Source: a virus. From it: a stretch of DNA of 64,000 nucleotides. The notes beneath the pieces are model-generated. The model had not been told where the DNA came from. It saw only the letters and a list, made by a program, of their open reading frames with translations, and did no database searches. A program made the translations under genes and the position numbers. This document shows positions 38,801 to 61,944 of this stretch, piece by piece. The DNA lies in the IMG/VR virus record IMGVR_UViG_3300045988_122718, positions 32,001-96,000 of that record; one strand, written 5' to 3'. Every line of letters starts with the position of its first letter. The stretch's first letter is position 1.

Positions 38801-40490
38801 TGAAAGTTTCCAAAACTCTATCAACCAGCTTCATTGGGATAACTTTGAAAAGTTCATTGATGCCATTGACAATGTTGGCAACGAAATTTCCAATCTAGGA
38901 GACCTAATCGACGAAGAAGACATTGTTGATGAAGTCGGTAATTGGACAGATAAAGGTATCACTGCACTTGGTTTGTATGCTCAAGAGATGGAACGTGCCA
39001 AATACAGAGCAGAACAGTATGGCAAAGAGATTGAGTATCTAAACCAAGAATATGCCGCTGGAAAGTATAGCGAAGATGAATATCTTGAGAAACTACAAGA
39101 ATTACGAGACGGCCAATGGGATAGCATTAAATCTTATGAGGCTGCAAAAAAGGCTATTGTTGATTTAAATAAAACTCGTATTGAGGCTATAAAAAATGGT
39201 ATTCAGAAAGAAATAGACGCTTATTCGGAACTTATTGACAAGAAGAAGGAAGAACTTAGCTTACAGAAAGAGTCACATGACTTCCAGAAGCAAGTAGCTG
39301 AACAGCAAAAAAATATTGCAAATATTCAAAAACAATTGGCTGCAATGGCCGGAGATAATTCTGCGTCTGCAATTGCTAGGAAAAAACAATTAGAAGCAGA
39401 ACTTGCCGCAGCACAAGAAGAACTCGATGAACTATATTATAATCATAGTGTTGAGAAGCAGCAAGAAGCACTTGATAAATCCTTAGAGAATTATCAGGAC
39501 AATAAGCAAGACGAAATGGACGCTCTTGACGAGTCTCTCAAGAACGAAGAACAAATCATTGCCGATAGTTATGCCACTATTACGGCAAATACGGAATCTG
39601 TAGCACAAACATTATCTGATATAGCAAGTCAGTATGGGATTACCCTATCTGATTCTGTTATGCAGCCTTGGCTAGATGGTGCTAACGCCATTGGTACTTA
39701 TCAAGAGCAGTTAGACACCTCTATGAGTTCTTTCACTCAGCAACTAGAGGCTCTTAAGCAGATGTATGCCGACTTACAAAATCAGGCTGATAGTGCTGGT
39801 AAGAGTATGGTTGATGCGATAAATGGTAGCAAGTCTAAAACAGAAGGTGCAACATATACGCCACCAATTCCATCACAACCAAGTACCCCATCAAAGCCAT
39901 CAAAACCATCTGCTCCATCTACTGGTTCGTCCGTTACAGTGAAAAAATCTGCAACACGCTTTTCAAGAGATGGTGGTAATGGTACTAGAATGCAGTCATG
40001 GGTCCCTGGTTCAACATTTACTGTTTATCAGGTTAGTGGTTCAGAAGTTCTAATTGGAAGAAATGGTCAATATACTGGATGGGTGCGTCTATCTGATATT
40101 GAAGGATATGCAAAGGGTACTAAAGAAATTCAAAATAACCAATTAGCAATGCTAGACGAACTTGGAGACGAGTTGGTTTTACATGCCGGTAAGAATGGCA
40201 GGTTAGAATATCTAACTAAGGGTACATCTGTTGTTCCAGCAGATATTACAAGCAACTTAATGAAGCTTGGCTCCTTAGACCCGAAGGATATTCTTGAAAG
40301 AAATAGACCTTCTATTGGTGCTCCACATGTTATTGATAATAGTATAGAGTTAAAAATGGAATTTGGCAGTCTTGTACATGTTGATACTGTTTCAAACGAT
40401 ACATTGCCATACTTGCAAAAGATGGTCAGAAATGAGTTTGATAATTGCATGAAACACGTAAATCAAGGGCTAAAGAAATTTGTTCGTTAA
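32863..40490 (+). CDS. tail tape measure protein, exon 2 (TMP core, TM segments, coiled coils, SH3b-like domain)
   Basis: The frame is open from 32856. It contains the canonical TP901-type core (LLNVSEFESADEASEALISTMQAYGYAAEDSMHVVDILNEIGNNFAISSDGLATALQDSASSL...ALRTISLRIRG) and hydrophobic segments. Conserved GELGPELRVRG...G and DELGDELVLHAG motifs are present. A Pro/Ser linker precedes an SH3b-like VTVKKSATRFSRDGG...GWVRLSDIEGY. Confidence 0.8.
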
Positions 40491-41676: not shown

Positions 41677-44600
41677 ATGATATTACCTAAAGACTTATTG
41701 TCAGAGAGTTATAGAAAACCAAAGGTTATATTGTGTCAAACAAACAAGGATAAAATTTGTCAATTAGATGCAACAGGACTGACTGGAACCTTTAAGTTTA
41801 ATAGCTATAGTGAAATTTCATTTAATGTTGCCTCTATTTATCATGATTTAATTACTGGTGAACAAAAGCGTACTCCATATTATGATTATATTGAAGGGCT
41901 TAGATTAGTTTATCTTGAAGGCTTTGGATACTTTCAGCTTCAGAATCCAGAGTTATATAGTGATGGTATTCAGGAATATAAACAAATAAATGCTTATTCT
42001 TTGGAGTATACACTATCTCAAAAATATCTAGAAACATTTATTATAAATAAGGGAGATGTAGGAGATACAATCGGCAGTATTGATGGAGCTGTTTTATATA
42101 ACCCATTAGATGTTGACCATAGTTTGCTTCATCTTGTATTACAAAAGGCATACGGTTGGACTATTGGACATGTTGATGATGAATTAGCATCACAAAGCCG
42201 TAGTTTCGAAGTTGATAGAGAGTCTATTTATGATTTTATCATGAATGATATGTGCGATACATTTAAATGTTATGTTGAATTTGATACTATCAACAATACA
42301 GTAAATGTGTATTCTGAAAATGAAATTGAGCGCTTTATCGGAGATGGAGAAACAGATACGTTTAAATTATCAAATGGGATTTCTGAAACTACTACTGTTA
42401 CCATCAATGGTCATGTAGTTACACAGTATAAATACAATGAAGATACAAAAGAGCTAATACTTACTCCTGCTCCGGCTCAAGGAGATATTGTAGAGGTTAC
42501 GGATGAATTCAAGCACAAATATGACACAGATATAATTATTGCATTTGAAAATCTGTCAAATGAAATGAAAGTAAACTATTCTTCAGATGATATAAAGACA
42601 GTTCTTACGGTAAAAGGCGCAGACGACTTAGACATTCGTAATGTTAATTTTGGATTGCCTACAATTATGAATCTTGACTACTATTGTACTCCAGAATGGA
42701 TGGGCGAGAAGCTTTATAATGAATACCTTTCATATGTTGACAAACAAGATAAATATATGAGCGGATTCTATAGTAGAGACATTGCAGGTTCTACAGAGGA
42801 AACATTTAATGTTGAAACAACTAAAGAAAGTTTTGTTGTTGGTAACACGCAAGAATTTATAGCAAAAGGATCACAAGAATCTTTTAACGCAAATGGTGAT
42901 GTGTCATATTTTAATATAGATAAAGCACAAGTAACTTATCAGATAAATAGTGTAGTTGAAAAATTAGATGTCAAGGCAGAATCAATGGTATTTGTTCAGC
43001 CAAAACTTTTATCAGAGAAGCATACTGTTGAGCTTGATGAAAAAACATTTATTCTTAAAAATAAAATTATTGTTCCAAAAGATACGAAGGTTTATGTTAA
43101 TGACGAAGAAATAAACGAAAATCAGTATGAATATGATGCTAATAAAAAAGAGTTGACAATTGTTGATGATTCACTTCAATTATCGACGGGAGATATAATT
43201 AAGATAGAAACACCAGAAAATAGCATTCAAACTAATTTTATCTTTGACAATCCTGATAACAAAAATATAGTCGTTAAAGTTAACGGAGAAGAAACTGAAA
43301 AATATGAAACTAACACAACCGGATTAAAAATTGCTGACGATGCAATTTTAAACTATGGAGACACTGTTATTGTAGAATTGATTGATAACAAGTTCAATTT
43401 AAGTAGTACAAAAGATAGAATTATTTCTGTAACTGTAAACGATAGAGATGTGGAGAAATATATTAGGAACGGAAACGTCTTATCTATAACCGACAATAGT
43501 TTGCGTAGTGGTAATATAGTTTCTGTAAAGTCTGTTGGCACAGAAAATACTATTGATTTGTCTCAACATAAAGATAAGGTTGTTGTATCTGTTAGTGTTG
43601 GTGAGAATGAAATTGATTCATATACATTAGAAAATTATAGGCTAACAGTTAATTATGAAGTCAGCCCTGGTGATGAAATAGTTGTTAAGTTGGTCAACAA
43701 CAAATTCGCTGTGCCTCAAGTAAAAGACAGAATATTGTCAGCCGAGATTGATTCTAATAACATCCAAGATTATTCTTTTTCTTTTATTAATGACGTACTA
43801 ACCATCAATGAATTGAAAGCTCTATACAATGGCACACAAGTTATATTGAAGTCTGTTGACGAATACTTTATTTTAAATAAAGAAGGCAGGGCTACATCTG
43901 TTTTTATTGATGGTATAGAAATTGGTGATAGTGAGTTTGATTATGATGATAATAAGTTAACTATCACATCAAATGTAATAACACCAGAAAGCAATATAAT
44001 AGTAGAGTTTGTAGGCACCTCTTTTCATTTAACCATAAGTGGAAGAATTAGTTCTGTTAGTATCAATGGAAAGAAAATAGAAAATTATAGCTTTGATGAA
44101 TCAAAAAGAATGTTAATTATTGATGATGAAAGTTTAATTTCGAATTGTAAAGTTAGTGTAGAAATAATTAACAATATGTTTTATTTATCAAATGTTCAGG
44201 AAAATGTGTCGTTATATGTTTATATTAATGGAATAGAAACGAAAAATTATGAACTTAAAAATAATGAATTAACTATAAAAGACACTCTGAAAATAAAAGA
44301 TACTGTGTCTGCTGAATATACAGACAACCATTTCCAAATATCGGGAGATATTGGATTAAGGCATGTAGTCGAAAAAGAATCGTCAGATGGTTCTTCCGAA
44401 AGTATTCAAGAAGGAACCGGATATGAATATGATGATACTACTAAAATATTAACAATCAATATTCCTCTTAAAAATGGAGAAAAAATAGTAGTTAAAAACA
44501 TTGATACTACAAACGCTTTAAGAGTCGTTCAATCAAATGCAAAAGAAGGAGAAATCCTGCTTGAAGATGTAACCCCAACATTGAAGTCATATGAACCAAA

Positions 44601-46569
44601 GGTCGGAGACTATGTTATAAAAATAGAAAGCTATACAACTATTTTGAAACAACTGTACGAGTTGATAGATAAACAGTTAACAGAAGAAAACTCTGTACCA
44701 GATGATTATGAAATTATAGAAATAAAACTAAACCCAGATAACTTCAATGAGGTCAATAAGTTTTTACCAGAAGCTGACATAGAGCATCTTGGAAATGTTT
44801 ATAAGATTACTAACCAAGAGAAAATCGTTGATGAAAGTGGTGGCGTTTCATATAACGACATAGCTTATAAGTATTATGTCTGTGAAATGAAGATGTCAAC
44901 ATATGTAGATGATGATGGAAAAGAGCAGCAACAGTATAAGTATGTTTGGAATGAAAGAGAATTAGTGTTTGGTGGAGATGGTATAAACTCTCTTAAGGAA
45001 AGAATAGATATTTATTCCGCCATTAATGATATACAAATTGCTGCAGAATGGGATCAAAAGCCACAAGGTAGCGATGAATATCAAAGCTATTCTGATAACT
45101 TGAAGAAGCTACAAGATACCAAAAAGGAATTAGAAGAGAAACAAAAAGCAGTTGATAGTATAGAAGAAGAAATAAAAAGTGCTCAAGACGAAATCAGAAT
45201 GATATCAGAAGATATCAATGTTGATAAAAACTTTTCGCCAGAGAGCTTAGATAGGCTTTCTTTATTCTTACGTGAAGATGAATATTCTGATGATTGTTTC
45301 TGTACTACAGACATTGATACGGATTTAGACATAATCAACACACAGAAAGAGCTATTAGTTGCTGGATATAAAAAGTTAAAGACCATTTCAAGACCAACAT
45401 TATCATTCTCTGCTTCTATGAAAAACATTTATGCAATCCCAGAGTTTGAGCCAATATTACATCAATTCAAACTTGGAAATTTTATAAAAGTTAGAATCAG
45501 AAAAGATTTTATTAAGAAGGCAAGATTACTTGAGGTGCAATTAGATTTTGACGACTTAAGCAATTTCTCATGTACATTTGGAGATTTACTGTCTGCAAAA
45601 GACCAAGGAGATATTCACGCTGATTTGTTGGCGCAAGCAATTAATGCCGGAAAAGCAGTGGCAAGTGGCTCTGCAAACTGGCAAAAGGGCTATAATGTTG
45701 CTACTGCGATTGATGAAAAAATTAAGCAAGGATTGATTGATGCAACGACTTCTATAAAATCAAATTCTGCCGGTCAGGACATTTCATGGGACAATTATGG
45801 TATTCATTTACGCAAAGTTGTTGATGGTATTCTAGACAAACATGAAGGATGGATTACGAACAACAAGTTCTTATATTCTGATGATAATTTCCAAACTACA
45901 AAATCTGTATTCGGTAATTATACTATTGAAGGAGAAACATATTGGGGCATTCTTGCTGGATGCGTTAGTGCTGGTCTTATTGAAGGTAGCCATATTATCG
46001 GTGGAGAAATATGTATTGGCTTACAAGAAGATGGAACTTATGCGTTTAAAGTAGACAAAGACGGAACGGTAACGATGAATAAAGGTGACGCAGCAGAAAA
46101 GTTATCCTACTTTAGTTTTGATGGAGATAATGGTTTGATTGTTGGTGAAAATAAAGAGGGAGATTATTTCTCAAGAGTTTCTGCGCAAAAAATTGAATTT
46201 TGTCGCAAAGCAAGAATTATTGTTGTAACATCTGAACCAACACATAAATACGATAATTATGATTATGTTCTATATCAACACACAGAAGGTTCGACTACTT
46301 ATTTTGATTATTATAAGAATCCAGACTTCGTATATAAAAATGAAGAACCATTATATGAGGCACGTGCCATTGGAGAAAATTTTGAAGACCCTGAAATAAA
46401 ATTCGGCATCCCAATTACTTATTTTGCAAATAATACAGCATATATGAAACAGGCAGAAATAGAAGGAAGTTTAAAGGTTGGTACAGAAGAACAAACCCCA
46501 TCTATTTCTTTGAAGAATTTCAGAATACAAATAGAGAGCAATGGTAGTTTGTCTATTGTAGCAACATAA
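41677..46569 (+). CDS. tail-associated protein Tal (1630 aa) with an internal tandem repeat array
   Basis: RBS GGGAGGTGG lies upstream and the gene follows Dit. The N-terminus resembles the phage minor structural protein N-terminal region (LDATGLTGTFKFNSYSEISFNV...YLEGFGYFQL). A repeat array lies at 43085-44345, and a coiled coil near 45100-45230. Confidence 0.7.
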   Translation: MILPKDLLSESYRKPKVILCQTNKDKICQLDATGLTGTFKFNSYSEISFNVASIYHDLITGEQKRTPYYDYIEGLRLVYLEGFGYFQLQNPELYSDGIQEYKQINAYSLEYTLSQKYLETFIINKGDVGDTIGSIDGAVLYNPLDVDHSLLHLVLQKAYGWTIGHVDDELASQSRSFEVDRESIYDFIMNDMCDTFKCYVEFDTINNTVNVYSENEIERFIGDGETDTFKLSNGISETTTVTINGHVVTQYKYNEDTKELILTPAPAQGDIVEVTDEFKHKYDTDIIIAFENLSNEMKVNYSSDDIKTVLTVKGADDLDIRNVNFGLPTIMNLDYYCTPEWMGEKLYNEYLSYVDKQDKYMSGFYSRDIAGSTEETFNVETTKESFVVGNTQEFIAKGSQESFNANGDVSYFNIDKAQVTYQINSVVEKLDVKAESMVFVQPKLLSEKHTVELDEKTFILKNKIIVPKDTKVYVNDEEINENQYEYDANKKELTIVDDSLQLSTGDIIKIETPENSIQTNFIFDNPDNKNIVVKVNGEETEKYETNTTGLKIADDAILNYGDTVIVELIDNKFNLSSTKDRIISVTVNDRDVEKYIRNGNVLSITDNSLRSGNIVSVKSVGTENTIDLSQHKDKVVVSVSVGENEIDSYTLENYRLTVNYEVSPGDEIVVKLVNNKFAVPQVKDRILSAEIDSNNIQDYSFSFINDVLTINELKALYNGTQVILKSVDEYFILNKEGRATSVFIDGIEIGDSEFDYDDNKLTITSNVITPESNIIVEFVGTSFHLTISGRISSVSINGKKIENYSFDESKRMLIIDDESLISNCKVSVEIINNMFYLSNVQENVSLYVYINGIETKNYELKNNELTIKDTLKIKDTVSAEYTDNHFQISGDIGLRHVVEKESSDGSSESIQEGTGYEYDDTTKILTINIPLKNGEKIVVKNIDTTNALRVVQSNAKEGEILLEDVTPTLKSYEPKVGDYVIKIESYTTILKQLYELIDKQLTEENSVPDDYEIIEIKLNPDNFNEVNKFLPEADIEHLGNVYKITNQEKIVDESGGVSYNDIAYKYYVCEMKMSTYVDDDGKEQQQYKYVWNERELVFGGDGINSLKERIDIYSAINDIQIAAEWDQKPQGSDEYQSYSDNLKKLQDTKKELEEKQKAVDSIEEEIKSAQDEIRMISEDINVDKNFSPESLDRLSLFLREDEYSDDCFCTTDIDTDLDIINTQKELLVAGYKKLKTISRPTLSFSASMKNIYAIPEFEPILHQFKLGNFIKVRIRKDFIKKARLLEVQLDFDDLSNFSCTFGDLLSAKDQGDIHADLLAQAINAGKAVASGSANWQKGYNVATAIDEKIKQGLIDATTSIKSNSAGQDISWDNYGIHLRKVVDGILDKHEGWITNNKFLYSDDNFQTTKSVFGNYTIEGETYWGILAGCVSAGLIEGSHIIGGEICIGLQEDGTYAFKVDKDGTVTMNKGDAAEKLSYFSFDGDNGLIVGENKEGDYFSRVSAQKIEFCRKARIIVVTSEPTHKYDNYDYVLYQHTEGSTTYFDYYKNPDFVYKNEEPLYEARAIGENFEDPEIKFGIPITYFANNTAYMKQAEIEGSLKVGTEEQTPSISLKNFRIQIESNGSLSIVAT
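43085..44345 (+). repeat. about 8 tandem copies of a diverged ~52-aa coding module within Tal
   Basis: Each unit reads V.(V/I)NG.E......Y..(D/N)...LTI.D..L..GD.(I/V).V. Units start near 43091, 43273, 43430, 43590, 43741, 43900, 44055 and 44218. A solitary related copy sits at about 42334-42500 (FIGDGETDTFKLSNG...VTINGHVVTQYKYNEDTKELILTPAPAQGDIVEV). Confidence 0.7.
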
Positions 46570-51819: not shown

Positions 51820-54800
51820 TTAACCACAGTGACTATACCCACATGATTTACAAATGTCACATCCCCCTTCGTGCTCAAGTAGCTCCCCACACTCTGGGCA
51901 TCTTCCGTTCTTTTCAGTAACAATCTTAATATCATTAGGAACTCTAGATTCATCATATTCTTCCTCGGAATCTGTGTCATAAGTATCTCCGATTTCATCT
52001 TGCATTTCCTTCCACATGTCTACAAGCGCATTTCCAATAGCCATAGGACAACAAGAACCCTTTGATGTGTCATGCTTTGTGGCTGTTCTTGCTGCGTAGC
52101 TTGGGCATACACCGGTTGAATCTAGCTGGTCTTTAATTGTAGCAATATCAACACCTGCTCTACATAGAAGAGATACTGTACGACTTAAACCAGTCATAAA
52201 ATTAGCACAACCACCAGTGCTACCTTTGTTGAAATATACTTCCTGCAAGTCACCATTGTATGGATCAAAGAAAGCCAATACATGAAGACTTCCACATCCA
52301 GTAGTCAGTTTGCGCTTTTTACCAATAAGGTCATCGGAACAGTTCATGATTGCACCACGTGGAATAGATTCTTCCGTCTGAATTTCTTCTTTGTTTTTAT
52401 CTTCTACAATCAATACACCTTCACGCTTACAGCCAGAACGATAAATTGTAATACCCTTTAGGCCATTCTTCCAAGCTGACATATAGATATTTTTAACATC
52501 ATCAATCGTAGCCTCATTTGGTAGATTTACTGTAGAGCTAATGCTCGCGTCAATCCCCTTTTGCCAAGCAGCCTGCATAGCTACACGTTTGTTATAGTCA
52601 ATTTCGGAAGAATCAACAAACCAATCAGGGAATTTATCGTTGACAGTAAGTCCGTGTTCGTCTGCATACTTTTGATAAATAGGGGTAAGCACATCATAGT
52701 ACTGAGTTGTTTCGTGCAGAGATTCTGTCTTACGCTTGTAGCTCTTTGCGAAAATAGGCTCAATACCACCACTGATTCCAAGCATTGTTGAGATGGTTCC
52801 GGTTGGAGCAATGGTTAGAAGTTGACTATTGCGTAGACCATAATTATCAACCATGTTTCTTGTTATGGTGTCTGCATTTGCTCTAAAGAATGGGGTATCA
52901 ATTGTTGCATTTGTATATTTAGGATATATACCCTTTTCACAAGCTAAGTGAGAAGAAACATAAATTGCGTGGTTAGCCATTGCCATAGAAATATCACGGC
53001 AGTGTTCGATTGCCTCGTCACTATCATAACGTAAATGCATCTTGATGAGCATATCAGCAACGCCGCATACCCCTAGTCCAACTTGACGCCAATCTCTTAC
53101 GCTATCTCTTTGCTCTTGTAGAGGATGAAGAGGAAGACCTTCGTCAAGAACCTCGTTTAAGTATCTAATACCAATATCTACTGTATCATAGAAATCATCA
53201 TACATAAAATTGCCATAATCATCTACAAAGGCAGACAGATTAATGGAACCGAGTAGGCATGACCCACCAGCGGGAAGAGGTTCTTCTGCACAAGGATTGG
53301 TTCCAGCATATTCGAAGTCTGGATTATTACTTAACAGATTATATTCTTCAATATTATCCCAGAATAGAATTCCTGGCTCTGCCCAGTTCCAATTGTTCTC
53401 ACATAGCTTATCAAAAATATCTCTTGCTTTTGCAGTCTTTGTGATTGTTTCACCAGTTTCTGGACGAGTAAAAGACATTACCCAATCGGTATCATCTTCG
53501 ACCGCTTGCATAAAATCATCTGTTACACGAACAGATATATTAGCTTTAGTAACGCTATTTTCTTTGGTCTTGATGTCAATAAAGTCTAGTAGGTCTGGAT
53601 GATGACAATCAAGACTAATCATTAAAGCGCCTCTGCGGCCATTCTGACCGATTTCCTCGGTTGTCTGACTATAGCCCTGCATGAAACTTACGGCGCCACT
53701 AGTCTTTTCTGCTTGATTATGGACCTTTGCACCAGCAGGGGCAAGTTTAGAAATGTCAATTCCGCAGCCTCCACCATACGAATATGTTCTTGCTAGCTTC
53801 TTACGACTTTCAAAAATAGACTCAATGTTGTCTTCTGGAGGTGCAATTACATAGCAATTATGAACAATAACACCATTTACATTATATGTATGCGTGTCTT
53901 CTACAGATAAGTTGTATACTTTGCAGTGGCAATCTTCAGAGATGCTAATTGAACTTAGAGCCGCATACTCAAAATCGCCACGTACATCAAGGCTATTTCT
54001 TCCGTCACTATATTGTTTAGACAATAGTGGATTTAAAAATTTATTAGAAATAGATACCCCAACACGAAATTCATATGTATCGGCTTGACGCTCTACGGAA
54101 TGAATAGGAGATGCGTTAATGCCATTCATCCACATTGTATAATGTAGCCAATCAATTAATTTACGATTTTTTAGCACAATACGAAATGCACCGTGTGTGT
54201 CTAACGTACCATCTGCGTCACATAGTCCGACCATCATTGGAACACAACCAAGATATTCATCAGGAACAAATTTATCGTTGCATTTTTCTCCAAAATGGTT
54301 AATAAACCAAGATGCTACAATTTCACTTTCAAACCTTAAAGCAATAACATTCTGATTGGTTTCACGATAAGATGCATGAATACCAAAAACACTTTCACCA
54401 ATAGATTTACAACGTTCAAACGCATCACGCTCTGTGGTTGCGTTGAATACGATTTGTAGAATAGATGGATTTTTATAACCACGGCGTGCCGTTATACTAC
54501 CATCACCCAACCAACGACCAATAAAATATGCAAAATCATCATCAAATACCCACTCAGCACGTACAGAGTTACCTCTATGCTGATAGGTTGTAGTTCCACG
54601 GTCATTTACAAGCGTATAAATTTGAGCCATTCCGTCTTTTACTTCAACCTTGCTATTGTCTCTAGCCTTAAATCCATCAAGAGCGGATACAATCTTTGGC
54701 GTAAGCTTAATCATATGGCGTTGTGCCATCTTGATTTTATCTTGTGCTTTAATTTGCTCAGAACAAGCAAGTATACGGTCTGCTCGTTTCCAACCGTGGT

Positions 54801-55230
54801 TTGTCAAAAATTTATGATTTGGAGTACATTTGATTGGTTCCATAAAATTTATACTTTTAAGACAATAAATATCTCCAGTATATTCACGACACATAATGTC
54901 ATTTACACGATGAAACTGTTCATCATGAGACAGTACCATGTCTCCAATAGCAATATCTTCAATATTTTTAAATCCGTCAATCGTAAGCACTTTGGAACCA
55001 GCCATAAAACAATTTGAGTAAGTGACTCTAGTGTCCTTTACACCTCGGTTGCTAAGAATACGACCACCAGGAACAAACTTCTTATTGATAATTGCTTTCT
55101 TTGCTCTCTTATTACCGCCACTTACTCTGTCTAGCCATTCATCAAATGACTCTTCGCCCTTACGATATTTTCTCATCCAAATATCAATTCCAAGTTTATT
55201 GTCTTTCCCTAACCACTGTTCTACTGTCAT
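51820..55230 (-). CDS. nrdJ: class II (adenosylcobalamin-dependent) ribonucleotide reductase NrdJ, containing an intein
   Basis: Extein motifs include VPGGRILSN...TYSN/CYVIAPPEDNIESI, YGGGCGIDISKLAPAGA, SGAVSFMQGY, GRRGALMISLDCHHPD, NPCAEEPLP and a C-terminal CPECG...CDICKSCG zinc ribbon. The RBS AAGGAGAG favours the second ATG at 55230. Confidence 0.85.
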   Translation of the reverse strand: MTVEQWLGKDNKLGIDIWMRKYRKGEESFDEWLDRVSGGNKRAKKAIINKKFVPGGRILSNRGVKDTRVTYSNCFMAGSKVLTIDGFKNIEDIAIGDMVLSHDEQFHRVNDIMCREYTGDIYCLKSINFMEPIKCTPNHKFLTNHGWKRADRILACSEQIKAQDKIKMAQRHMIKLTPKIVSALDGFKARDNSKVEVKDGMAQIYTLVNDRGTTTYQHRGNSVRAEWVFDDDFAYFIGRWLGDGSITARRGYKNPSILQIVFNATTERDAFERCKSIGESVFGIHASYRETNQNVIALRFESEIVASWFINHFGEKCNDKFVPDEYLGCVPMMVGLCDADGTLDTHGAFRIVLKNRKLIDWLHYTMWMNGINASPIHSVERQADTYEFRVGVSISNKFLNPLLSKQYSDGRNSLDVRGDFEYAALSSISISEDCHCKVYNLSVEDTHTYNVNGVIVHNCYVIAPPEDNIESIFESRKKLARTYSYGGGCGIDISKLAPAGAKVHNQAEKTSGAVSFMQGYSQTTEEIGQNGRRGALMISLDCHHPDLLDFIDIKTKENSVTKANISVRVTDDFMQAVEDDTDWVMSFTRPETGETITKTAKARDIFDKLCENNWNWAEPGILFWDNIEEYNLLSNNPDFEYAGTNPCAEEPLPAGGSCLLGSINLSAFVDDYGNFMYDDFYDTVDIGIRYLNEVLDEGLPLHPLQEQRDSVRDWRQVGLGVCGVADMLIKMHLRYDSDEAIEHCRDISMAMANHAIYVSSHLACEKGIYPKYTNATIDTPFFRANADTITRNMVDNYGLRNSQLLTIAPTGTISTMLGISGGIEPIFAKSYKRKTESLHETTQYYDVLTPIYQKYADEHGLTVNDKFPDWFVDSSEIDYNKRVAMQAAWQKGIDASISSTVNLPNEATIDDVKNIYMSAWKNGLKGITIYRSGCKREGVLIVEDKNKEEIQTEESIPRGAIMNCSDDLIGKKRKLTTGCGSLHVLAFFDPYNGDLQEVYFNKGSTGGCANFMTGLSRTVSLLCRAGVDIATIKDQLDSTGVCPSYAARTATKHDTSKGSCCPMAIGNALVDMWKEMQDEIGDTYDTDSEEEYDESRVPNDIKIVTEKNGRCPECGELLEHEGGCDICKSCGYSHCG
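53857..55011 (-). mobile_element. 385-aa intein with LAGLIDADG homing endonuclease domain in NrdJ
   Basis: The intein starts with Cys (CFMAGSKVLTIDG, block A). Block B is TPNH. The LAGLIDADG motifs are FAYFIGRWLGDGSI and MMVGLCDADGTL. It ends GVIVHN, followed by the +1 Cys (CYVIAPPED). Removal leaves a 751-753-aa NrdJ, depending on the start used. Confidence 0.85.
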
Positions 55231-55298
55231 AGGCATCTCTCCTTATCTAAATAACTTTTTATATCTACTAAGAACGGACACTTGCCGTACTTTTCGAG

Positions 55299-55455: not shown

Positions 55456-56166
55456 TTAGTTTCCTCCATTATTGTTTAAAATTTCTTTAAGCCGTTTCTT
55501 AGTTGGATATGCACCACAAGATTTTTTGCCCTCTGGACACCATAGCAAATACTGACACTCTGGCACTAGTTTGGATTCAAGGTTTGGCAAAATCTTAACA
55601 ACCTCTTTCTTCATTTCTACTGCTAGCTGACGAATAATATCTTCCGCCCGAGAACATAGTCTTTTGTGCATAAAGTGGATAATACCTTCCACAGTAAAGC
55701 CAATTACAAAAGCAGTATGTGTTGAAATAGGCAGTACATATCTCGCCTGTTCGTTTGCTCTTTCTTGTGTCTTGCCCTTAGATAAAACATAAGACTGAAT
55801 ATATTCATATAGGTTCGTGACATCTTGCATATGCTTATCATACTTTGCTAGTAGTTCAGGATTATCAGTAATTTCTACTGGCACCTCATATGCAAAATGA
55901 TCCTTCCCTACATATCGAAACGACTGAACGTTCTTAAACACCCCAACCTCATGTCGCACTGCTTGGTCAACAGTGAAGCGAGGAATGTCTGTAACTAAAA
56001 ACTTGATAAAGTCACCGCGACTACCACTAAAATGCCCATTTGCCATACAACCCTTACCAATTGGGATTGGATCGTCAGTATGAGTATCGTAACAAATCGC
56101 ACTTGTTTCACCCCAATTAGTGAACAGTTTTGATACTGCATCTGGATTTAAAATTTTTACATTCAA
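55456..56166 (-). CDS. thyX: FAD-dependent thymidylate synthase ThyX
   Basis: FSGSRGDF...FTVDQAVRHEVGVFKNVQSFRY is a variant ThyX RHR..S.R motif. ARYVLPISTHTAF...HFMHKRLCSRAEDIIRQLA is also present. Confidence 0.7.
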   Translation of the reverse strand: MNVKILNPDAVSKLFTNWGETSAICYDTHTDDPIPIGKGCMANGHFSGSRGDFIKFLVTDIPRFTVDQAVRHEVGVFKNVQSFRYVGKDHFAYEVPVEITDNPELLAKYDKHMQDVTNLYEYIQSYVLSKGKTQERANEQARYVLPISTHTAFVIGFTVEGIIHFMHKRLCSRAEDIIRQLAVEMKKEVVKILPNLESKLVPECQYLLWCPEGKKSCGAYPTKKRLKEILNNNGGN

Positions 56167-56738
56167 TTCGACATCAGCTCCTCATCCTGCTTATAAAACT
56201 CCTCTACTGCCGCAACAATTTCATCCCAATTTGTGCAACGCTTAATACTATAAGCTTCATCATGCACATTCTTGTTCCAAGGTTTTTCTAAGACTACCCT
56301 ATTGCATCGAATATTTCCAATAAGATTGTCTAGATTATCATCAATCATTACATCTACGGCTAGAAGGCTCTTGTCTCTGATGCAGATAATATGAGATTCA
56401 TCAATAAACGGGAAATAGCTTTGCAGCCACTCAACCTTCCAAGGAAAGTTCTCCCAATGTGTTGCAGTTGTAATATACACATCATAGCCGTTATCAATCA
56501 GCTTTTTTGTTCCCCATTGAGAATGATATACAGGAGTAAGAGAACGCCAAACGTCCTCTCTTCTCCATAGAGCAGTGTACTTTTCTGCATCTTCAAATGG
56601 TAAGCATTTATAGATATCATACGAAGTAAATGTGTCTTCTGTAATGTCCGTACCATTCTCTTCATTGAATACTTTACATACAGCTTCGTTAAGATTATTC
56701 AGAACATCATCACAATCCAAAGCAATTCTATATCTCAT
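56163..56738 (-). CDS. 5'(3')-deoxyribonucleotidase-like HAD hydrolase
   Basis: The N-terminal IALDCDDVLNNL carries the HAD DxD motif. Size and layout fit the NT5C family. There are ATGA overlaps with both neighbours, and the conserved leader motif lies upstream. Confidence 0.6.
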   Translation of the reverse strand: MRYRIALDCDDVLNNLNEAVCKVFNEENGTDITEDTFTSYDIYKCLPFEDAEKYTALWRREDVWRSLTPVYHSQWGTKKLIDNGYDVYITTATHWENFPWKVEWLQSYFPFIDESHIICIRDKSLLAVDVMIDDNLDNLIGNIRCNRVVLEKPWNKNVHDEAYSIKRCTNWDEIVAAVEEFYKQDEELMSN

Positions 56739-57856
56739 ACATTTCCTCCATTAATTTTGTACTGTACAATATAATCAGACCAATTAGTACCATTATCGTT
56801 GAATAGCAGAGAATAGAAGATGGCCACCAAACAGGATGTTACGATAGAATTACCAGCCTGTTTATAAAGGGCAGAGTCACTTACGTACTTAGATGCACGA
56901 TTGCAGTCTTCATCGGAGAAGCTCATCAGCCTCCAGCATTCTTTTGGTGTTAGTTTTCTAATCCTCCATTTAATATTATCCACTACAAGCGGCTGTCTAT
57001 TGCCACCTTGTGCAGTCATAATAGTAGGAGAAACAGAATCCTGATCCCACACATTTCCAGCATATCCAGTACCAAACTGTTCACCGTAGATATTACCAAT
57101 TCTAACTGGGTTGATATCTTCTGACTCAATAACTCTCTTATCACCACAAGCATCAATAGTACGAAGTGTACCAACGACATCATCCTTGAAGAATCTTAGT
57201 CCTTCATCGCAACGCTGCTCACAAACGACGGGTTCCATTACATAATTATCCTTGGCAACAGTAGTAATAGTATTGGTAGTTCCGTTCATATTGGCTTCAA
57301 GTCTCTGCTCCGTAGGAGAACCCGTAGTTCTGTCTGATGAATTCTCTGGATTTCGACCACGAGAAGCTACAATGAAATATTCATCAACAAGAATCTTATG
57401 TGAAGTATATTCACCAGATGTTGAACCATGAGAATTTGACATAACAGTATGTGCAATACATTCTGCACTATATACTCTGCCACTCTGGTCAAAACTAGAA
57501 TCTAGCTGATCGACTTTGATAATGCTAGGCTCAATAACACCAGTCATAGACTGATTACCAAAGCCCTTATAATCTCTAGCCATAAGAGTATGTGCAACAT
57601 TTGTTAGACCATCGAATGTCGTTTCCTGATTTTTTAGATTAATACCACTAGCTTCGTTTTGTCTTGCAATAAAGTTTGCAAGAATGCTTTCTACTTTATC
57701 ACCAGAGAGGTAGTATTTCTCATCTACGGTCTTCTCTAGAATATCCTTTAGACGAGTTGTTAGAGGAATCTGCTCTGGCCAAGTAAAATCTTTCCATAGC
57801 TTGATATTTGGGTTTTTCTCAATTTCTTTCATTATTTCTTGAACTTTATTATTCAT
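56735..57856 (-). CDS. DNA (cytosine-5) methyltransferase, C-terminal subunit (long TRD plus motifs IX-X)
   Basis: GGTGGGAAT precedes ATG at 57856, overlapping the HNH stop. FTWPEQIPLTTRLKDILEKTVDEKYYLS marks the start of the TRD. RIRKLTPKECWRLMSF is motif IX and YKQAGNSIV is motif X. Confidence 0.75.
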   Translation of the reverse strand: MNNKVQEIMKEIEKNPNIKLWKDFTWPEQIPLTTRLKDILEKTVDEKYYLSGDKVESILANFIARQNEASGINLKNQETTFDGLTNVAHTLMARDYKGFGNQSMTGVIEPSIIKVDQLDSSFDQSGRVYSAECIAHTVMSNSHGSTSGEYTSHKILVDEYFIVASRGRNPENSSDRTTGSPTEQRLEANMNGTTNTITTVAKDNYVMEPVVCEQRCDEGLRFFKDDVVGTLRTIDACGDKRVIESEDINPVRIGNIYGEQFGTGYAGNVWDQDSVSPTIMTAQGGNRQPLVVDNIKWRIRKLTPKECWRLMSFSDEDCNRASKYVSDSALYKQAGNSIVTSCLVAIFYSLLFNDNGTNWSDYIVQYKINGGNV

Positions 57857-58379
57857 ATTCCCACCTATATCCTTTATATAATTTATGCAATCTACATGCT
57901 CTTGCAATTCCACTATTGTCATATCCTAAAATACGTCCTGCTTCACGAGTTGATGCGAATTTTGCTATAAAGTTCATATTTGAATCATATTGCAATATTG
58001 GTTTACTCCAATAATTTTTTGCCATTGTTCCACATTGTTCTTTGTTCTTTTTAGAGGCTCTACCTTTGGCATTATTTTCTTCCCATGTTAACAATTGCAT
58101 ATTATCAAAAGTATAATCCCTATAATCATCAATACGATCTATAGATGGACATAAATTTTTATTATAATTACTGTCTTTATAATTTTGTAATAATGATAAA
58201 ATCTTTTCTTTATAATTTGACAAAATCCAATCATTAAATTGATTTCTTGTAAATGATAATTCAGATGAAAATTTATTCTTTTCATCTCTTTTCATTCTTC
58301 CGTATTGCTTTGTTACCCAGTAATGCAAATCACCTTTATGTGTCTGGTCATACCATTTTTTATACTCATTTTTCGTCAT
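57849..58379 (-). CDS. HNH-family homing endonuclease-like protein with C-terminal NUMOD/IENR-type HTH, inserted between the methyltransferase halves
   Basis: SIDRIDDYRDYTFDNMQLLTWEENNAKG is an HNH-like core with a degenerate first His. ILQYDSNMNFIAKFASTREAGRILGYDNSGIARAC....YKGYRWEY is typical of the DNA-binding tails of phage HEGs. The gene overlaps both methyltransferase ORFs. Confidence 0.65.
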   Translation of the reverse strand: MTKNEYKKWYDQTHKGDLHYWVTKQYGRMKRDEKNKFSSELSFTRNQFNDWILSNYKEKILSLLQNYKDSNYNKNLCPSIDRIDDYRDYTFDNMQLLTWEENNAKGRASKKNKEQCGTMAKNYWSKPILQYDSNMNFIAKFASTREAGRILGYDNSGIARACRLHKLYKGYRWEYE

Positions 58380-59061
58380 TTATATCAATCCTTTTGCTAA
58401 TACAAAAAATACGAAGCCTGTTTTGTGGAACACCGTAATTCTTGCTATTCAATAAGTCAAATGTACTCTCGTACCCAATCTCAGTAAGTTTTTCCAGATA
58501 CTTAATAAAATTATGTTTGTGCTTATCACTCAATACGGCTGCAACATTTTCCCAAATTACATATTTAGGCTTTGATGTTCCAATTAGACGCAGAGATTCC
58601 CACATAAGAGAACTAGTTGTACCACTACCTTCGTCTCCACCAGCACCGAGTCCGGCCTGTGAAAAACTTTGACAAGGGCTACTATGAAAAACGATGTCTA
58701 CGTAAGGAAGACTTTCACAAAGACTTACATCACCAAGATTTTTTGCCAACTTATCCGCTAGATAATATTGCTTGACTTTATTTTCATTAGTTCTCATTGT
58801 GATGGTGTGCTTCGATTTGGCGAAGTCAAAGCCCACATTTTTCTTCTGTAGTTCAGATACCATGGTTTCTTTAGATGGAAATGTATAATTGTTAAATTCC
58901 TTCTCAAAGTCATACCTCATTGCTGCGTAACTTAAAATAGCATCTTTTTCAACATCCATCGTTGCAACAACTTCACAATTGATAGGCAACTGTCTAAGTG
59001 CCCTTTCTTGGGCACCAATACCCGAAAAAATCTCTATCAGCTTAATTTTATTATTGCCCAT
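58366..59061 (-). CDS. DNA (cytosine-5) methyltransferase, N-terminal subunit (motifs I-VIII)
   Basis: IEIFSGIGA is motif I, HSSPCQSFSQAG is motif IV (PCQ), VIWENV is motif VI and VPQNRLRIFCIS is motif VIII. The ORF terminates 9 codons later, inside the HNH gene start. Confidence 0.8.
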   Translation of the reverse strand: MGNNKIKLIEIFSGIGAQERALRQLPINCEVVATMDVEKDAILSYAAMRYDFEKEFNNYTFPSKETMVSELQKKNVGFDFAKSKHTITMRTNENKVKQYYLADKLAKNLGDVSLCESLPYVDIVFHSSPCQSFSQAGLGAGGDEGSGTTSSLMWESLRLIGTSKPKYVIWENVAAVLSDKHKHNFIKYLEKLTEIGYESTFDLLNSKNYGVPQNRLRIFCISKRIDINDEK

Positions 59062-59075
59062 AAACTTACCTCAAA

Positions 59076-59621
59076 TTAATTTTGTACTGTTTCTACTTCA
59101 ACAATATGTTTCAGCACAGAATACGCTTTATCCTCGTTTAGATTACTAATAGCGTAATCAAACCCACCATGTGCTTTCATATGAATAAACTGTTTCATCT
59201 CTGCCCTATTTCTAGCAAAGAAATCTTCCACAGAATCTCCACGATACAAAGCACGGTCTAGACGAACTTCTGTAGGTACATTGATATAAATAGAACATAG
59301 GTCAATATCTTCAAGTCCCAGACTTTCTAGTGTTTCAAGCCCTGCTGGGTCGATGATATAAATATCATTATTATAAATTTGCTCAATTGTCGTCCAATAG
59401 TGGGACCCGTTAATTTCAGTATAAGCAGCCAAATTATCCTTCATTTGCTCATAAAAGGCATCGTCTACAAAAATATGCGTGTCTCCTTCATTTGCACGAC
59501 GAGGGCGAGTTGTATAGCTGATAATCTTTTTTAGACTAGTATCTTCACATAGTCTATTCACCAAAGTATCTTTACCAGCACCAGTTTCAGCCATAATGCA
59601 AAACAACTTATGATTACTCAT
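59076..59621 (-). CDS. guanylate kinase-like / deoxynucleotide monophosphate kinase
   Basis: GAGGAGAAGAC precedes ATG at 59621. The P-loop is AETGAGKDT, and YTTRPRRANEGDTHIFV resembles the guanylate kinase signature. Confidence 0.6.
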   Translation of the reverse strand: MSNHKLFCIMAETGAGKDTLVNRLCEDTSLKKIISYTTRPRRANEGDTHIFVDDAFYEQMKDNLAAYTEINGSHYWTTIEQIYNNDIYIIDPAGLETLESLGLEDIDLCSIYINVPTEVRLDRALYRGDSVEDFFARNRAEMKQFIHMKAHGGFDYAISNLNEDKAYSVLKHIVEVETVQN

Positions 59622-59937
59622 ATGTCTTCTCCTCTTCTTCTCCAAACTTCGGTGTCTCTACCTCATGGTCAATAGCCTTCTGACAGAAGTCAAGAACCTT
59701 CTTTACGGTTCTGCGCATATCGGCCATAGTGCGCTTACCAGGCTTATTCAGTTCCGCATTGATAATGTTAGCAATAGTTACCGCCATAGTACGTGCGCCA
59801 AGCAAAAGTGCCTGTGTACGAATCTTTTCTACAACGTCTGTTACCTTATCCTTGAACTCATCCTTCTTCCCATCGGCAATATCGTTATCTACAATGACAT
59901 CCTCATTTTCATTTACGACATTAATGTTTTCGTCCAT
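59614..59937 (-). CDS. hypothetical acidic protein
   Basis: The conserved leader ACAGTACAAAATTAATGAAGGAGG is followed by ATG at 59937 (MDENINVV). The track start at 59988 lies upstream of this RBS. Confidence 0.55.
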   Translation of the reverse strand: MDENINVVNENEDVIVDNDIADGKKDEFKDKVTDVVEKIRTQALLLGARTMAVTIANIINAELNKPGKRTMADMRRTVKKVLDFCQKAIDHEVETPKFGEEEEKTYE

Positions 59938-59994
59938 TACTTTTCCTCCTTCATTAATTTTGTACTGTAAGTATAACACCACTTGCAATATTTG

Positions 59995-61944
59995 TCAAGA
60001 GGGATTTTTAATCATATTTAAGAAATCTTCTTCGTTGATGATAGGGATTCTTAAATCTATTGCCTTCTTGTTTTTGCCACTTGTACTATTCTTATCGTTG
60101 TTGATTAGGTAGTCTGTCTTCTTGCTTACACTAGACACATACTTGCCGCCATTATATTCAATAACTTTAACAAGCGTATCTCTATTGGCATAATGAATAA
60201 GGTTGCCAGTAATACAAAAACTTTTACCGTCAAGACTAGCACTAGAAATTGCACCATCATCAACAATAAAGTTTACTTCCATAGGCAACAATTCTACCAT
60301 TGAGTCTTTACTATGCCACCAATCGTGCAATGACTTATTAGTAATCTCGCCGAAATCATCAATCTGAGAAAAATCATAGTTATCATTAGCTAATGCCATT
60401 ATAAAATCATAGTGATTACCATTAAATTTTTTGCTAATAGCCTTTGCTGCAGATAGACCAATATTAGGAATACCTAATGCTGCAATAAAATTCTCTAGCT
60501 TTACATCTCTACTTTTTTCTATACTATTTAATAGATTTTCAACGGACTTTTTGCCCATTCCATCTAAGGTGCACAGTTTACCCACATGCTCCTTTAAATG
60601 ATAAATATCGCGGAAATTCTTTACTAAATTATTAGAAATTAGGAGCGATAATGTCTTCTCCGATAGCCCATCAATATTCATGCATTTACGACTTACAAAG
60701 TGAGTGAATCGAGCCAACTTCTTTGCGGGACAATCTGGATTAGTACACATTAGCACCTTACTATTATCTGTATACTTAACCTCTGTAGGATAGCCACAAC
60801 ATTGGCAGGTAGTAGGAATCTTTAACGTATTGCTGCGAGTTAGATTATCGTCAATTTTAGGAATAACCATGTTTGAACGATACACCGTAATATTATCTCC
60901 AATACCAAGCTCAAGTTGCTCAATAATGGAAAGGTTGTGAAGTGTAGCTCTTGTAGTCAAGGCTCCGTCTAGGTCAACCTCATCGAAAACGGCTACTGGA
61001 GCAATAATTCCGGTTCTTGTCGTATTCCACTCAACATCTCTTAGTACCGTTTCATAAGTTTCATCACCGAACTTAAATGCGTAAGCTGCATTGCTATGAT
61101 GTGATGTTGTCCCAAGGCTTTCGCCATACTTAATATCATCAAAACGTCCAACCAACCCATCAATTGGATATCCAAGCTTTTTAGCCTTATTGACCAAAAA
61201 CTCCTTTGCATCCCAATCAAAAGAACTAGTCCACGGAACAACAGTAAAACCTAACTCATCAATAAGTACTAACTTACGCAAGAAGCTATTTTCATTATCA
61301 AAACCTTTGATTGCATTCCAAGCCACAAAAGTTAGAGGTCTCTTTGCGCATTCATTTGAATCAAGTAATCTGATACTTCCAGAGGCAAAGTTTCTCGGAT
61401 TCTTATACTCTGTAGAGAATGGCTCAAAGTCATCATATGTGCAGATAATCTCACCATCAATAATGAGTTCATCCTTATATGGAATCTTATGTGGAACTGT
61501 TTTTACAGTTTTAATGTTGTGAAAAATATCTTCTCCAATTTCTCCATTACCACGAGTTTCTGCTGATATTAGTTCGCCGTCAATGTATCTTATACTGCAA
61601 GTAAGGCCATCCATCTTTAGCATTCCTATAACATCTTTACTACCAAAGTATCTAATAAATTCATTCCAATCTTTAGTCTTTGCCAAAGATAGCATGGGGT
61701 GGTTATGAGTGACCTTCTGTAGTTCAGACTTTACTTCATACCCAACTTTATGCGTAGGCGATGCCATCATAACAAATCCAGTCTCCTGCTCTAGAGAACG
61801 AAGTTCTTCTAGAAGTGCATCAAACTCATAATCCTCCATAATTGTATTACCAGTATTATAATAAGCATCCGCTGCCTTATTAAGCAATTCTGTTAATTCT
61901 TTAATTCTACCAATTTTCTCCAATACTTGATCCCTCCCATTCAA
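59995..61944 (-). CDS. ligA: NAD-dependent DNA ligase LigA
   Basis: Adenylation motif LKMDGLT (KxDG), an N-terminal AADAYYNTGNTIMEDYEFDALLEEL, a Cys4 zinc finger (CQCCGYP...CTNPDCPAK), an HhH region and a C-terminal BRCT (GKSFCITGNL). The start is uncertain: TTG at 61944 or TTG at about 61923, downstream of GGGAGGG. Confidence 0.85.
   Translation of the reverse strand: MNGRDQVLEKIGRIKELTELLNKAADAYYNTGNTIMEDYEFDALLEELRSLEQETGFVMMASPTHKVGYEVKSELQKVTHNHPMLSLAKTKDWNEFIRYFGSKDVIGMLKMDGLTCSIRYIDGELISAETRGNGEIGEDIFHNIKTVKTVPHKIPYKDELIIDGEIICTYDDFEPFSTEYKNPRNFASGSIRLLDSNECAKRPLTFVAWNAIKGFDNENSFLRKLVLIDELGFTVVPWTSSFDWDAKEFLVNKAKKLGYPIDGLVGRFDDIKYGESLGTTSHHSNAAYAFKFGDETYETVLRDVEWNTTRTGIIAPVAVFDEVDLDGALTTRATLHNLSIIEQLELGIGDNITVYRSNMVIPKIDDNLTRSNTLKIPTTCQCCGYPTEVKYTDNSKVLMCTNPDCPAKKLARFTHFVSRKCMNIDGLSEKTLSLLISNNLVKNFRDIYHLKEHVGKLCTLDGMGKKSVENLLNSIEKSRDVKLENFIAALGIPNIGLSAAKAISKKFNGNHYDFIMALANDNYDFSQIDDFGEITNKSLHDWWHSKDSMVELLPMEVNFIVDDGAISSASLDGKSFCITGNLIHYANRDTLVKVIEYNGGKYVSSVSKKTDYLINNDKNSTSGKNKKAIDLRIPIINEEDFLNMIKNPS

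Follow-up and report, generated by a model that had tools for sequence, protein, structure and literature searches.

Positions 32,001 to 96,000 of the virus record IMGVR_UViG_3300045988_122718 contain a C5 DNA methyltransferase gene that is divided into two parts by a homing-endonuclease-like gene. We refer to this whole stretch of 64,000 nucleotides (nt) as the window and give all positions on its numbering. The minus strand between 56735 and 59061 can be read directly as three overlapping open reading frames (ORFs), each in another frame, and all three were found where an earlier inspection of the bare sequence (hereafter the original prediction) had placed them, with the motifs it had assigned. 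All features of the locus described below lie on this strand. The upstream ORF, or N-half (58366..59061; 231 amino acids, aa), encodes the large catalytic domain with motifs I (FSGIGA, 59011..59028), IV (SPCQSFS, 58660..58680), VI (WENV, 58543..58554) and VIII (QNRLR, 58411..58425), and its C-terminus reads ...QNRLRIFCISKRIDINDEK*. The free-standing middle ORF (57849..58379; 531 nt, 176 aa) encodes the homing-endonuclease-like protein. The downstream ORF, or C-half (56735..57856), has 373 aa counted from the ATG at 57856 and consists of a 23-aa leader, the sequence FTWPEQ...VDEKYYLS, a long variable region, motif IX RIRKLTPKECWRLMSF and motif X GNSIV, the two motifs spanning 56840..56965.

The two halves thus share out the complete motif set of a C5 methyltransferase, with motifs I, IV, VI and VIII in one polypeptide and a variable region followed by motifs IX and X in the other. 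The N-half matches PF00145 (positions 14-164, 132 bits against a cut-off of 22) and TIGR00675 (111 bits against a cut-off of 100.65), and weakly matches the NCBIfam 'N-terminal subunit' family NF045953 (38.6 bits against a cut-off of 93). The C-half matches PF00145 at positions 166-321 with 44 bits.

The stop/start overlaps proposed for both junctions were confirmed by direct reading. At junction 1 (58366..58379), the endonuclease ATG (58377-58379) lies inside the last N-half codons and the N-half ends with a TGA at 58366-58368 (aATGACGAAAAATGA), which gives an overlap of 14 nt. At junction 2 (57849..57866), the last codons of the endonuclease gene (RWEYE*) contain both a Shine-Dalgarno-like AGGTGGG (57860..57866) and the ATG of the C-half (57854..57856); the TAA of the endonuclease gene at 57849-57851 (GAATATGAATAA) makes the overlap 8 nt. 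The AGGTGGG sits 5 bases 5' of the C-half ATG, within the codons for the C-terminal RWEYE of the middle protein, and the sequence AGGTGGGAATATGAA at this junction recurs in three related contigs (L004, L024 and L028). Among relatives, the overlap between C-half start and endonuclease stop is 8-17 nt long, and the endonuclease start mostly overlaps or abuts the N-half stop at endonuclease identities down to 37%. We found no terminator-like site on the minus strand of the scanned stretch, in which promoter-like matches were at background level, and we therefore read the three ORFs as one operon. A single gene has in this way become a three-ORF operon of N-half, endonuclease and C-half, in which the stop/start overlaps and the built-in ribosome-binding site permit the translation of all three to be coupled.

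The middle ORF has a GC content of 27.8%, compared with 36.5% and 38.2% in the two halves. Its position at the linker between motif VIII and the target-recognition domain (TRD) is as the original prediction had it, with the correction that the C-half does not begin at the TRD but has the 23-aa leader ahead of FTWPEQ. The neighbours of the locus are a guanylate-kinase-like gene, NT5C, ThyX and a ligase gene; there is no partner restriction gene among them, as is typical of an orphan methyltransferase.

Uninterrupted alleles and the mobile cassette

The layout is not an assembly artefact or a chance product. The window is 100% identical to a 154,929-bp contig (L014) of the Joint Genome Institute (JGI), and the exact 176-aa protein has entries in 94 index blocks. 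Reading 23 contigs returned six places with this protein, each time flanked by a 231-aa N-half and a C-half. At least 23 independent metagenomic contigs carry an identical middle ORF in the same layout. The original prediction had named a continuous methyltransferase ORF in a corrected assembly as the result that would speak against it, and these contigs (at least 23) all keep the gene split. Megablast against INPHARED returned no near-identical public phage genome, and full-text searches gave no description of a C5 methyltransferase gene split by a homing endonuclease.

A search with the joined halves returned many continuous homologs of 605-833 aa on contigs of 150-170 kb. One of them (L011) has an uninterrupted 614-aa gene in the same slot, between the guanylate-kinase-like gene and NT5C, and its junction ...GATAACGGCAAT|TTTAAATTC... 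marks the insertion site of the endonuclease gene. In the alignment to uninterrupted alleles, the N-half extends up to the residue that precedes F(K/T)(F/W)PEQ; the C-half, once past its leader, continues from this point. The uninterrupted allele that the original prediction had proposed to look for in related phages thus exists at the same locus in sibling phages and defines the site.

The two halves are related to the uninterrupted alleles to very different degrees. From FTWPEQ onwards, the C-half is 93.7% identical in amino-acid sequence to the L011 allele, with a ratio of nonsynonymous to synonymous substitution rates (dN/dS) of 0.094. The N-half is only 50% identical to the corresponding part of the uninterrupted alleles and has no counterpart of their insert of about 30 aa with the pattern CxxC...CPxC. 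By its sequence, the N-half is a different catalytic-domain lineage that travels with the endonuclease gene, a feature that could not be seen by the original prediction. The insert itself, a Zn-finger-like element between motif IV and motifs V/VI, is present in all 120 best uninterrupted homologs (P0001-P0120; for example L011, 8001..9845). One Zn-type uninterrupted homolog from a related contig outside the window (P0108, 974 aa) carries an intein exactly at the catalytic Pro-Cys of motif IV (YSFP|CFTGD...VHN|CTDLS).

DNA homology to the uninterrupted L011 stops at 58991 and resumes at 57777. Insert-carrying genomes share a cassette of ~1.29 kb (57775..59058) that is 99.0-100% identical between them. 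It runs from the N-half through the endonuclease gene into the C-half, of which it includes the first ~27 codons. In the same genomes identity falls in the flanks (76-97%), with 80-97% in the guanylate-kinase gene, 92-99% in the next 300 nt of the C-half and 81-99% in NT5C. A locus recovered by a motif scan (L045) shows the same island: its N-half is 99.0%, its endonuclease gene 98.9% and its leader 100% identical, next to 80.4% in the guanylate-kinase gene, 94% in the next 300 nt and 82% in NT5C. As purifying selection cannot yield such an island, the ~1.29-kb unit must have moved horizontally in recent times. This cassette occurs in combination with C-halves of 323, 373, 473, 550 and 608 aa. 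The insert is thus present or absent at one fixed site and bears a signature of horizontal spread, which is the behavior of a mobile homing gene.

The sequences also suggest how the cassette came to include a whole protein domain. Sequence divergence between the N-parts of the two allele types is too great for recombination, so cross-overs must fall in the first conserved DNA on either side, that is, at the gene start and in the FTWPEQIPLTTRLKD region; with cross-overs confined to these two places, the whole catalytic domain is co-converted. The cassette replaces the first ~260 codons of an uninterrupted resident allele, and the resident TRD and C-terminal part are kept. Homing would proceed by cleavage of the uninterrupted allele, repair from the donor and co-conversion out to the nearest homologous DNA. 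We consider the anatomy and the mobility signature secure. The sequence comparison indicates that the cassette spread recently between related phages with co-conversion; mobility is visible in the pattern itself, and from it we infer homing as the mechanism.

The leader of the C-half, MNNKVQEIMKEIEKNPNIKLWKD (57788..57856), is predicted to be helical, and in an AlphaFold2 model of the fused N- and C-halves it forms a helix at residues 234-244; the TRD in this model has a predicted local distance difference test score (pLDDT) of ~22 and is uninformative. Homologs of the leader, with the pattern M.K....(L/M)KE(I/L)....(I/V)K(I/V)W..F.FP, head every split-allele C-half that has a readable start. 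No such leader is present in the Zn-type uninterrupted alleles or in P0144, which is closely related to the L024 backbone but lacks the endonuclease gene, and hence the leader appears to travel with the endonuclease gene. A counterpart, ...RKIEDESDRDTTTRECKSSNKQVINTMKEIRENHPNIKIWEGFTFPEP, is found in P0122, the only continuous allele of this N-domain type, and the leader also weakly resembles a linker of the rho11s enzyme, KKRLKELNIKSFNFKW. We read the leader as the linker of the donor methyltransferase lineage, probably dragged along by co-conversion. Alternatively, by analogy with the split nrdA gene of phage Aeh1, it may be a tail that was created by the insertion. As for the 39 nt that the uninterrupted allele P0122/L020 has at the insertion site, we rejected them as an excision footprint of the endonuclease gene, since their alignment score was reached by 115-258 of 500 shuffles and is not significant.

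The recognition region of the C-half extends for ~275 aa from FTWPEQ to motif IX (56966..57787), somewhat less than the ~290 aa of the original prediction, which was otherwise right in calling it long and comparing it to the multispecific enzymes of Bacillus phages. The rho11s and H2 enzymes align over 91% of the C-half (E 2e-18, 28-29% identity), whereas most phage methyltransferases match only its last 100-150 residues. A hidden Markov model built only from three rho11s TRD modules gave two matches in the C-half, with 7.4 bits at residues 122-145 and 5.0 bits at residues 269-288, whereas none of 100 shuffles exceeded 2.2 bits. At least two rho11s-type TRD cores are thus present; three further cores of the TL type were seen by eye. 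The TL-type cores are VAHTLMARDYKG (57563..57598), SGRVYSAECIAHTVMSNSHG (57425..57484), GTTNTITTVAKDNY (57242..57283), VVGTLRTIDACGDK (57137..57178) and NVWDQDSVSPTIMTAQGGN (56999..57055). Among the 120 uninterrupted homologs, length grows from 605 to 833 aa with the number of TL cores (0-3), and the differences are blocks of whole modules. Coverage by rho11s and H2, the model matches and the module-sized length steps make the multispecific reading of the C-half well supported at the sequence level, and tandem TRD modules are indeed the hallmark of the multispecific phage C5 methyltransferases, which also include SPR and phi3T. The likeness to rho11s and H2 extends to the phage-borne orphan status, the long variable region with tandem TRD cores and the module-sized gains and losses among alleles. 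The difference is that the Bacillus enzymes are single polypeptides and that the uninterrupted relatives of the present gene have the Zn-finger-like insert after motif IV.

Two related contigs (L015, 9495..10133; L016, 10350..10988) have an additional ORF of 212 aa with a weak PF00145 match immediately after the C-half, which the window does not have, and in L028 a 226-aa relative of this ORF precedes the N-half. We rejected the idea that it is a second split of the gene; it is a separate small methyltransferase-like gene.

The middle protein and its relatives

Pfam detects a single domain in the middle ORF, a C-terminal NUMOD1/helix-turn-helix element (57852..58004; E 2.6e-5). Its presumed nuclease core, the beta-beta-alpha motif PSIDRIDDY...DNMQLLTWEENNAKG (58062..58148), follows an N-terminal three-helix part. 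The AlphaFold2 model of the protein (pLDDT 90.8) shows three N-terminal helices, a beta hairpin and helix at residues 78-108 (strands 78-82 and 94-98, helix 99-108) and a C-terminal helix-turn-helix. The best match of this model in the PDB, as found by Foldseek, is the homing endonuclease I-HmuI (1u3e; E 4.8e-5). At the sequence level, the protein matches PHROG 1035 'endonuclease VII' (7e-9) and many viral 'HNH endonuclease' and 'intron-associated endonuclease' models, and among 26 members of its family 17 match NUMOD1 and 4 match I-HmuI_NUMOD-like. Taken together, the predicted structure, the Foldseek match and the Pfam match describe a beta-beta-alpha-metal fold combined with a NUMOD/helix-turn-helix element, as in I-HmuI. 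No Pfam HNH model gave a match, and neither did a sequence-profile search of the PDB with hmmsearch. A sequence-profile link between the nuclease core and I-HmuI was dropped, because hhalign aligned the NUMOD/helix-turn-helix part only.

The family is very large, with 6,470 cluster representatives at E up to 1e-10. Its core motif, PS(I/V)DRIDDY..Y.F.N.QL.TW.EN..KG, has no His, and the pattern PSxDRxDD...N...N is near-invariant over thousands of relatives. Comparison with a 68%-identical homolog gave a dN/dS of 0.245 for the endonuclease gene, and hence the middle protein appears to be under selection.

The close relatives of the middle protein are found at the same place in other methyltransferase genes. 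Homologs of 59-69% identity occupy the same position in other phages, where the methyltransferase operon lies beside DnaE (L004-8, L028, L046), with C-halves of 277-472 aa. In L024, a homolog of 59% identity splits an unrelated small methyltransferase with a single TRD at the same junction, and in L021 the N-half, 56% identical to ours, ends in ...RRIDNE* with an overlapping ATG. In a scan of JGI metagenomes, ten of the 11 best relatives (at least 36% identity) were flanked by C5-methyltransferase pieces, compared with none of 69 weaker relatives. In most of the ten, the endonuclease gene lies between or beside the N- and C-pieces at the junction of motif VIII and the TRD, and the upstream piece, where present, ends 9-17 residues past QxRxR(I/V)F. 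In L048, and in L026, which was found separately, the endonuclease gene lies just upstream of an intact methyltransferase gene. Scans of IMG/VR and GTDB yielded only more distant relatives: ten loci from IMG/VR (31-38% identity), of which one has a C5 methyltransferase within 3 kb, and three from GTDB genomes (33-41% identity). Judged by these neighbourhoods, the clade of the middle protein is dedicated to this site in C5-methyltransferase genes, which was not visible to the original prediction.

Probable activity of the two halves and competing explanations

The best explanation of the locus as a whole, to which we assign a probability of roughly 0.7, is that a mobile endonuclease gene has split a C5 methyltransferase in its interdomain linker and that the halves probably still cooperate. 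The original prediction had left the choice between a two-subunit enzyme and an inactive one. The sequences favour the former, and methyltransferase activity of the pair seems likely, because the break falls at the best fragment site of M.SssI and M.HhaI, all catalytic motifs are intact and dN/dS is low (0.15 for the N-halves of L004 and L008, in addition to the value for the C-half given above). For C-terminal fragments of M.SssI and M.HhaI, complementation was best at this break position and needed no overlap (Slaska-Kiss et al. 2012, PMC3404938). The large domain (motifs I-VIII) and the small domain (TRDs, motifs IX-X) would join non-covalently into an active enzyme, and the assembled enzyme would methylate several targets on the phage genome, thereby shielding it against host restriction. 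Divergence between lineages runs in parallel for the N-half (72.6% amino-acid identity) and the endonuclease (68.2%), which would be expected if the split is old. Five independent contigs (L004, L005, L006, L007 and L046) have an in-frame TGA at codon 27 of the endonuclease gene (HQY*RIKRD) together with open halves of 226 and 472 aa; this TGA is either a fixed nonsense mutation or is read as a sense codon in that phage lineage.

A number of observations weigh against this explanation. HNH enzymes carry their general-base His at the end of strand 1; of 109 relatives, 108 have an Arg there and only one has a His (P0282, PSIDHIDDY). With the canonical catalytic residue replaced, the protein may not be an active nuclease. 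Among the relatives with Arg are proteins annotated as 'HNH homing endonucleases', from Vibrio phage SBP1, E. coli phage G7C (gp15.1) and Nitratiruptor phage NrS-4. Some split alleles are damaged: in L008 the Q codon of QNRLR is changed from CAA to TAA, in L024 the frame shifts ahead of motif VIII, and in L020 a TAA lies in frame within the TRD. The gene hence appears to be dispensable in some settings. Split M.SssI regained only ~4% of full activity by fragment complementation (PMC3404938). In addition, dS is saturated in most between-lineage comparisons, and most loci in the identity-island test were chosen because they encode exactly the same endonuclease protein; this choice introduces an ascertainment bias, from which only L045 and L013 are free. 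Of the label 'HNH/NUMOD-like' in the original prediction, the NUMOD1 match and the I-HmuI-like fold and architecture stand, whereas the Arg at the catalytic position and the missing Pfam HNH match set the protein apart from a canonical HNH enzyme. We accept the architecture and mobility of an endonuclease gene and regard the endonuclease chemistry as uncertain.

Two alternatives take up these observations. The insertion could have killed the methyltransferase, in which case the halves would be a young pseudogene carried along with a selfish element by a phage that does not rely on the enzyme. The damaged alleles of L008, L024 and L020 and the low activity of split M.SssI agree with such a scenario, and phage orphan methyltransferases are accessory genes. 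We nevertheless find it doubtful: both halves are open with all catalytic motifs intact in the window and in all six places that have the exact protein, the N-halves of two further lineages (73% and 56% identical to ours) stop at the same place, dN/dS is 0.09-0.15, the halves are intact even where the endonuclease gene has a stop, and the start/stop overlaps and the internal ribosome-binding site are conserved. Alternatively, the middle ORF may have ceased to be an endonuclease and become a DNA-binding relic or regulator, the cassette having spread by ordinary homologous recombination and selection for the catalytic N-half. The Arg in place of the general base, the lack of a match to any Pfam HNH model and the restriction of the hhalign alignment with I-HmuI to the NUMOD/helix-turn-helix part are all in its favour. 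However, the near-invariant PSxDRxDD...N...N motif points to a conserved active site and not to decay. The dN/dS of 0.245, the low GC content, the fold match to I-HmuI and the sharp 1.29-kb identity island centred on the middle ORF also speak against this alternative, as does the observation that many unrelated methyltransferase genes either have or lack the insert at a single fixed site. We therefore consider a relic unlikely.

Two further explanations were considered. If the interruption were removed at the level of RNA or protein, as a group I intron with an embedded ORF or as an intein, a single-chain enzyme would result, in which ...GACGAAAAA is joined directly to TTTACTTGG.... Phage homing-endonuclease genes often sit in introns, and the same phage family has inteins in its ribonucleotide reductase (RNR) and, in P0108, in this very methyltransferase family. 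An Rfam scan of 56000..60000 at E up to 10, however, found no intron and returned two chance-level matches, to a microRNA and to a small-RNA family. Consistent with the original prediction that there is no room for an intron, the insert is coding end to end, and with overlaps of 14 and 8 nt it offers no space for an intron core. A group I or II intron was rejected on these grounds, and the free-standing ORF without intron or intein makes this a gene in pieces; an intein at the split was rejected because the ORFs are in three frames and a Pfam scan of all three found no Hint domain. A spliced enzyme is thus scarcely credible. The methyltransferase could also have been a natural two-subunit enzyme like M.AquI before the endonuclease gene settled in its intergenic gap. 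Natural two-polypeptide C5 enzymes do exist (M.AquI, M.EcoHK31I), as does the 'N-terminal subunit' family that the N-half weakly matches. Against this, we found no split at this position without an endonuclease gene; stand-alone N-halves of this type (169-233 aa) are always followed by the endonuclease gene wherever the context is readable; the only relative of this N-type without an endonuclease, P0122, is continuous across the junction; and where other public phage methyltransferases are split, a nonsense codon or a frameshift interrupts the TRD. A pre-existing split is accordingly very improbable.

The split by a mobile endonuclease gene also admits a more far-reaching version, which we offer tentatively and think rather unlikely to be correct in full. 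The split would then be a working modular system, in which an I-HmuI-like clade without His (Arg-Asn-Asn) uses Arg in a previously uncharacterised His-Me-finger chemistry, and the cassette of catalytic half and endonuclease docks on any resident TRD half. Homing would shuffle one catalytic subunit over multispecific recognition subunits of 323-608 aa. If so, phages would possess a means for the fast re-pairing of catalysis with new anti-restriction specificities.

Known systems and phage context

The closest known system is the nrdA-a/mobE/nrdA-b arrangement of Aeromonas phage Aeh1, reportedly described as a 'gene in pieces' by Friedrich et al. in 2007. In both cases an enzyme gene is divided in two by a free-standing homing-endonuclease gene, without intron or intein; there is an overlap between the endonuclease ORF and the downstream piece, the insert is of low GC content, short terminal tails are found at the break, and relatives have uninterrupted genes. 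The host gene of Aeh1 is an essential RNR and is broken inside the active-site barrel, whereas the present one is an accessory C5 DNA methyltransferase broken between two folded domains. Here, in addition, there are many natural examples, a whole endonuclease clade is tied to the site, the upstream half travels with the endonuclease, and the C-half leader may be an ancestral linker instead of an insertion-created tail. Function has been demonstrated for Aeh1, where nrdA split by mobE remains functional (PMC3045599); for the present halves it is predicted from sequence.

The original prediction had cited M.AquI as an enzyme split in the same region. This does not hold, as M.AquI breaks inside the variable region and not before it (PMC3404938). 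M.AquI (alpha/beta) and M.EcoHK31I are natural C5 methyltransferases made of two polypeptides (PMC3404938), and they resemble the present enzyme in having two separately translated chains, the large one with motifs I-VIII. In M.AquI, however, the alpha subunit holds part of the TRD, there is no gene between the subunit genes, and the enzyme is monospecific and belongs to a restriction-modification system; in the window the break precedes the TRD and the halves are separated by a 531-nt ORF. By analogy, the engineered fragment pairs of M.SssI and M.HhaI and the Aeh1 nrdA/mobE system appear to be closer functional precedents. The engineered pairs differ in being laboratory constructs of low activity (~4%), whereas the present halves have co-evolved as separate proteins. 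For the middle protein, the nearest relative of known structure is I-HmuI, the intron-encoded HNH nicking endonuclease of phage SPO1, with which it shares, as its best structural match, the C-terminal NUMOD/helix-turn-helix and a beta-beta-alpha core followed by helices. It differs in its location outside an intron, in its N-terminal domain and in the Arg that replaces the catalytic His.

Barth et al. refer to 'at least one instance' in which an enzyme gene has remained functional after being split by a free-standing homing endonuclease, namely nrdA of Aeh1 (PMC10448857). If the methyltransferase halves are active, they would constitute the second such gene, and one that is naturally replicated in dozens of independent alleles with several recognition-half lengths and methyltransferase backbones. 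Nature's break point would then coincide with the best split point of protein engineers, and natural pairs could therefore seed tools for targeted methylation by split enzymes. Under the same condition, the locus would illustrate, cleanly and in nature, how homing with long one-sided co-conversion exchanges an entire protein domain. It further draws attention to a very large family of phage endonucleases whose 'HNH' motif is devoid of His.

Other broken C5-methyltransferase genes were also encountered. In relatives and public phages, breaks inside the TRD arise by deletion, nonsense codon or frameshift and without an endonuclease gene, as at the loci L009 (5001..6863, 269 + 308 aa), L002 (1431..3371) and L001 (988..2266). 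Among phage methyltransferases that appear split in GenBank, we rejected as instances of the same phenomenon those of Dulem virus 40 (in-frame TAA in the TRD) and Javan179 (frameshift in the TRD), as well as those of Bcp1 and Perkons, which are separate tandem genes.

The window encodes tail proteins, an endolysin with Amidase_3 and CW_7 domains, an integrase and an intein-bearing RNR, and its genes use Shine-Dalgarno sites. The tail proteins, endolysin, integrase and Shine-Dalgarno sites point to a temperate siphovirus-like phage of a Gram-positive host, and at least one related contig is labelled as gut metagenome. Four giant ORFs occupy the plus strand of the structural region: 2636..9589 (2317 aa), 22507..31680 (3057 aa), 32907..40490 (2527 aa) and 41677..46569 (1630 aa), the last of which has no Pfam match.

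The phage family is rich in homing elements. In one relative (L018), an ORF for a GIY-YIG/NUMOD3 endonuclease (3575..4420) lies just upstream of the DNA ligase gene, where the window has none. The RNR gene of the window (51820..55236, minus strand; 1138 aa, Ribonuc_red_lgC and TSCPD) contains an intein (PF14890/Hint), whereas that of L011 and L018 is uninterrupted (751 aa) and that of L016 consists of 268 aa, a 235-aa LAGLIDADG ORF and 461 aa. The RNR gene thus represents a second mobile-element polymorphism, 1.5 kb from the methyltransferase.

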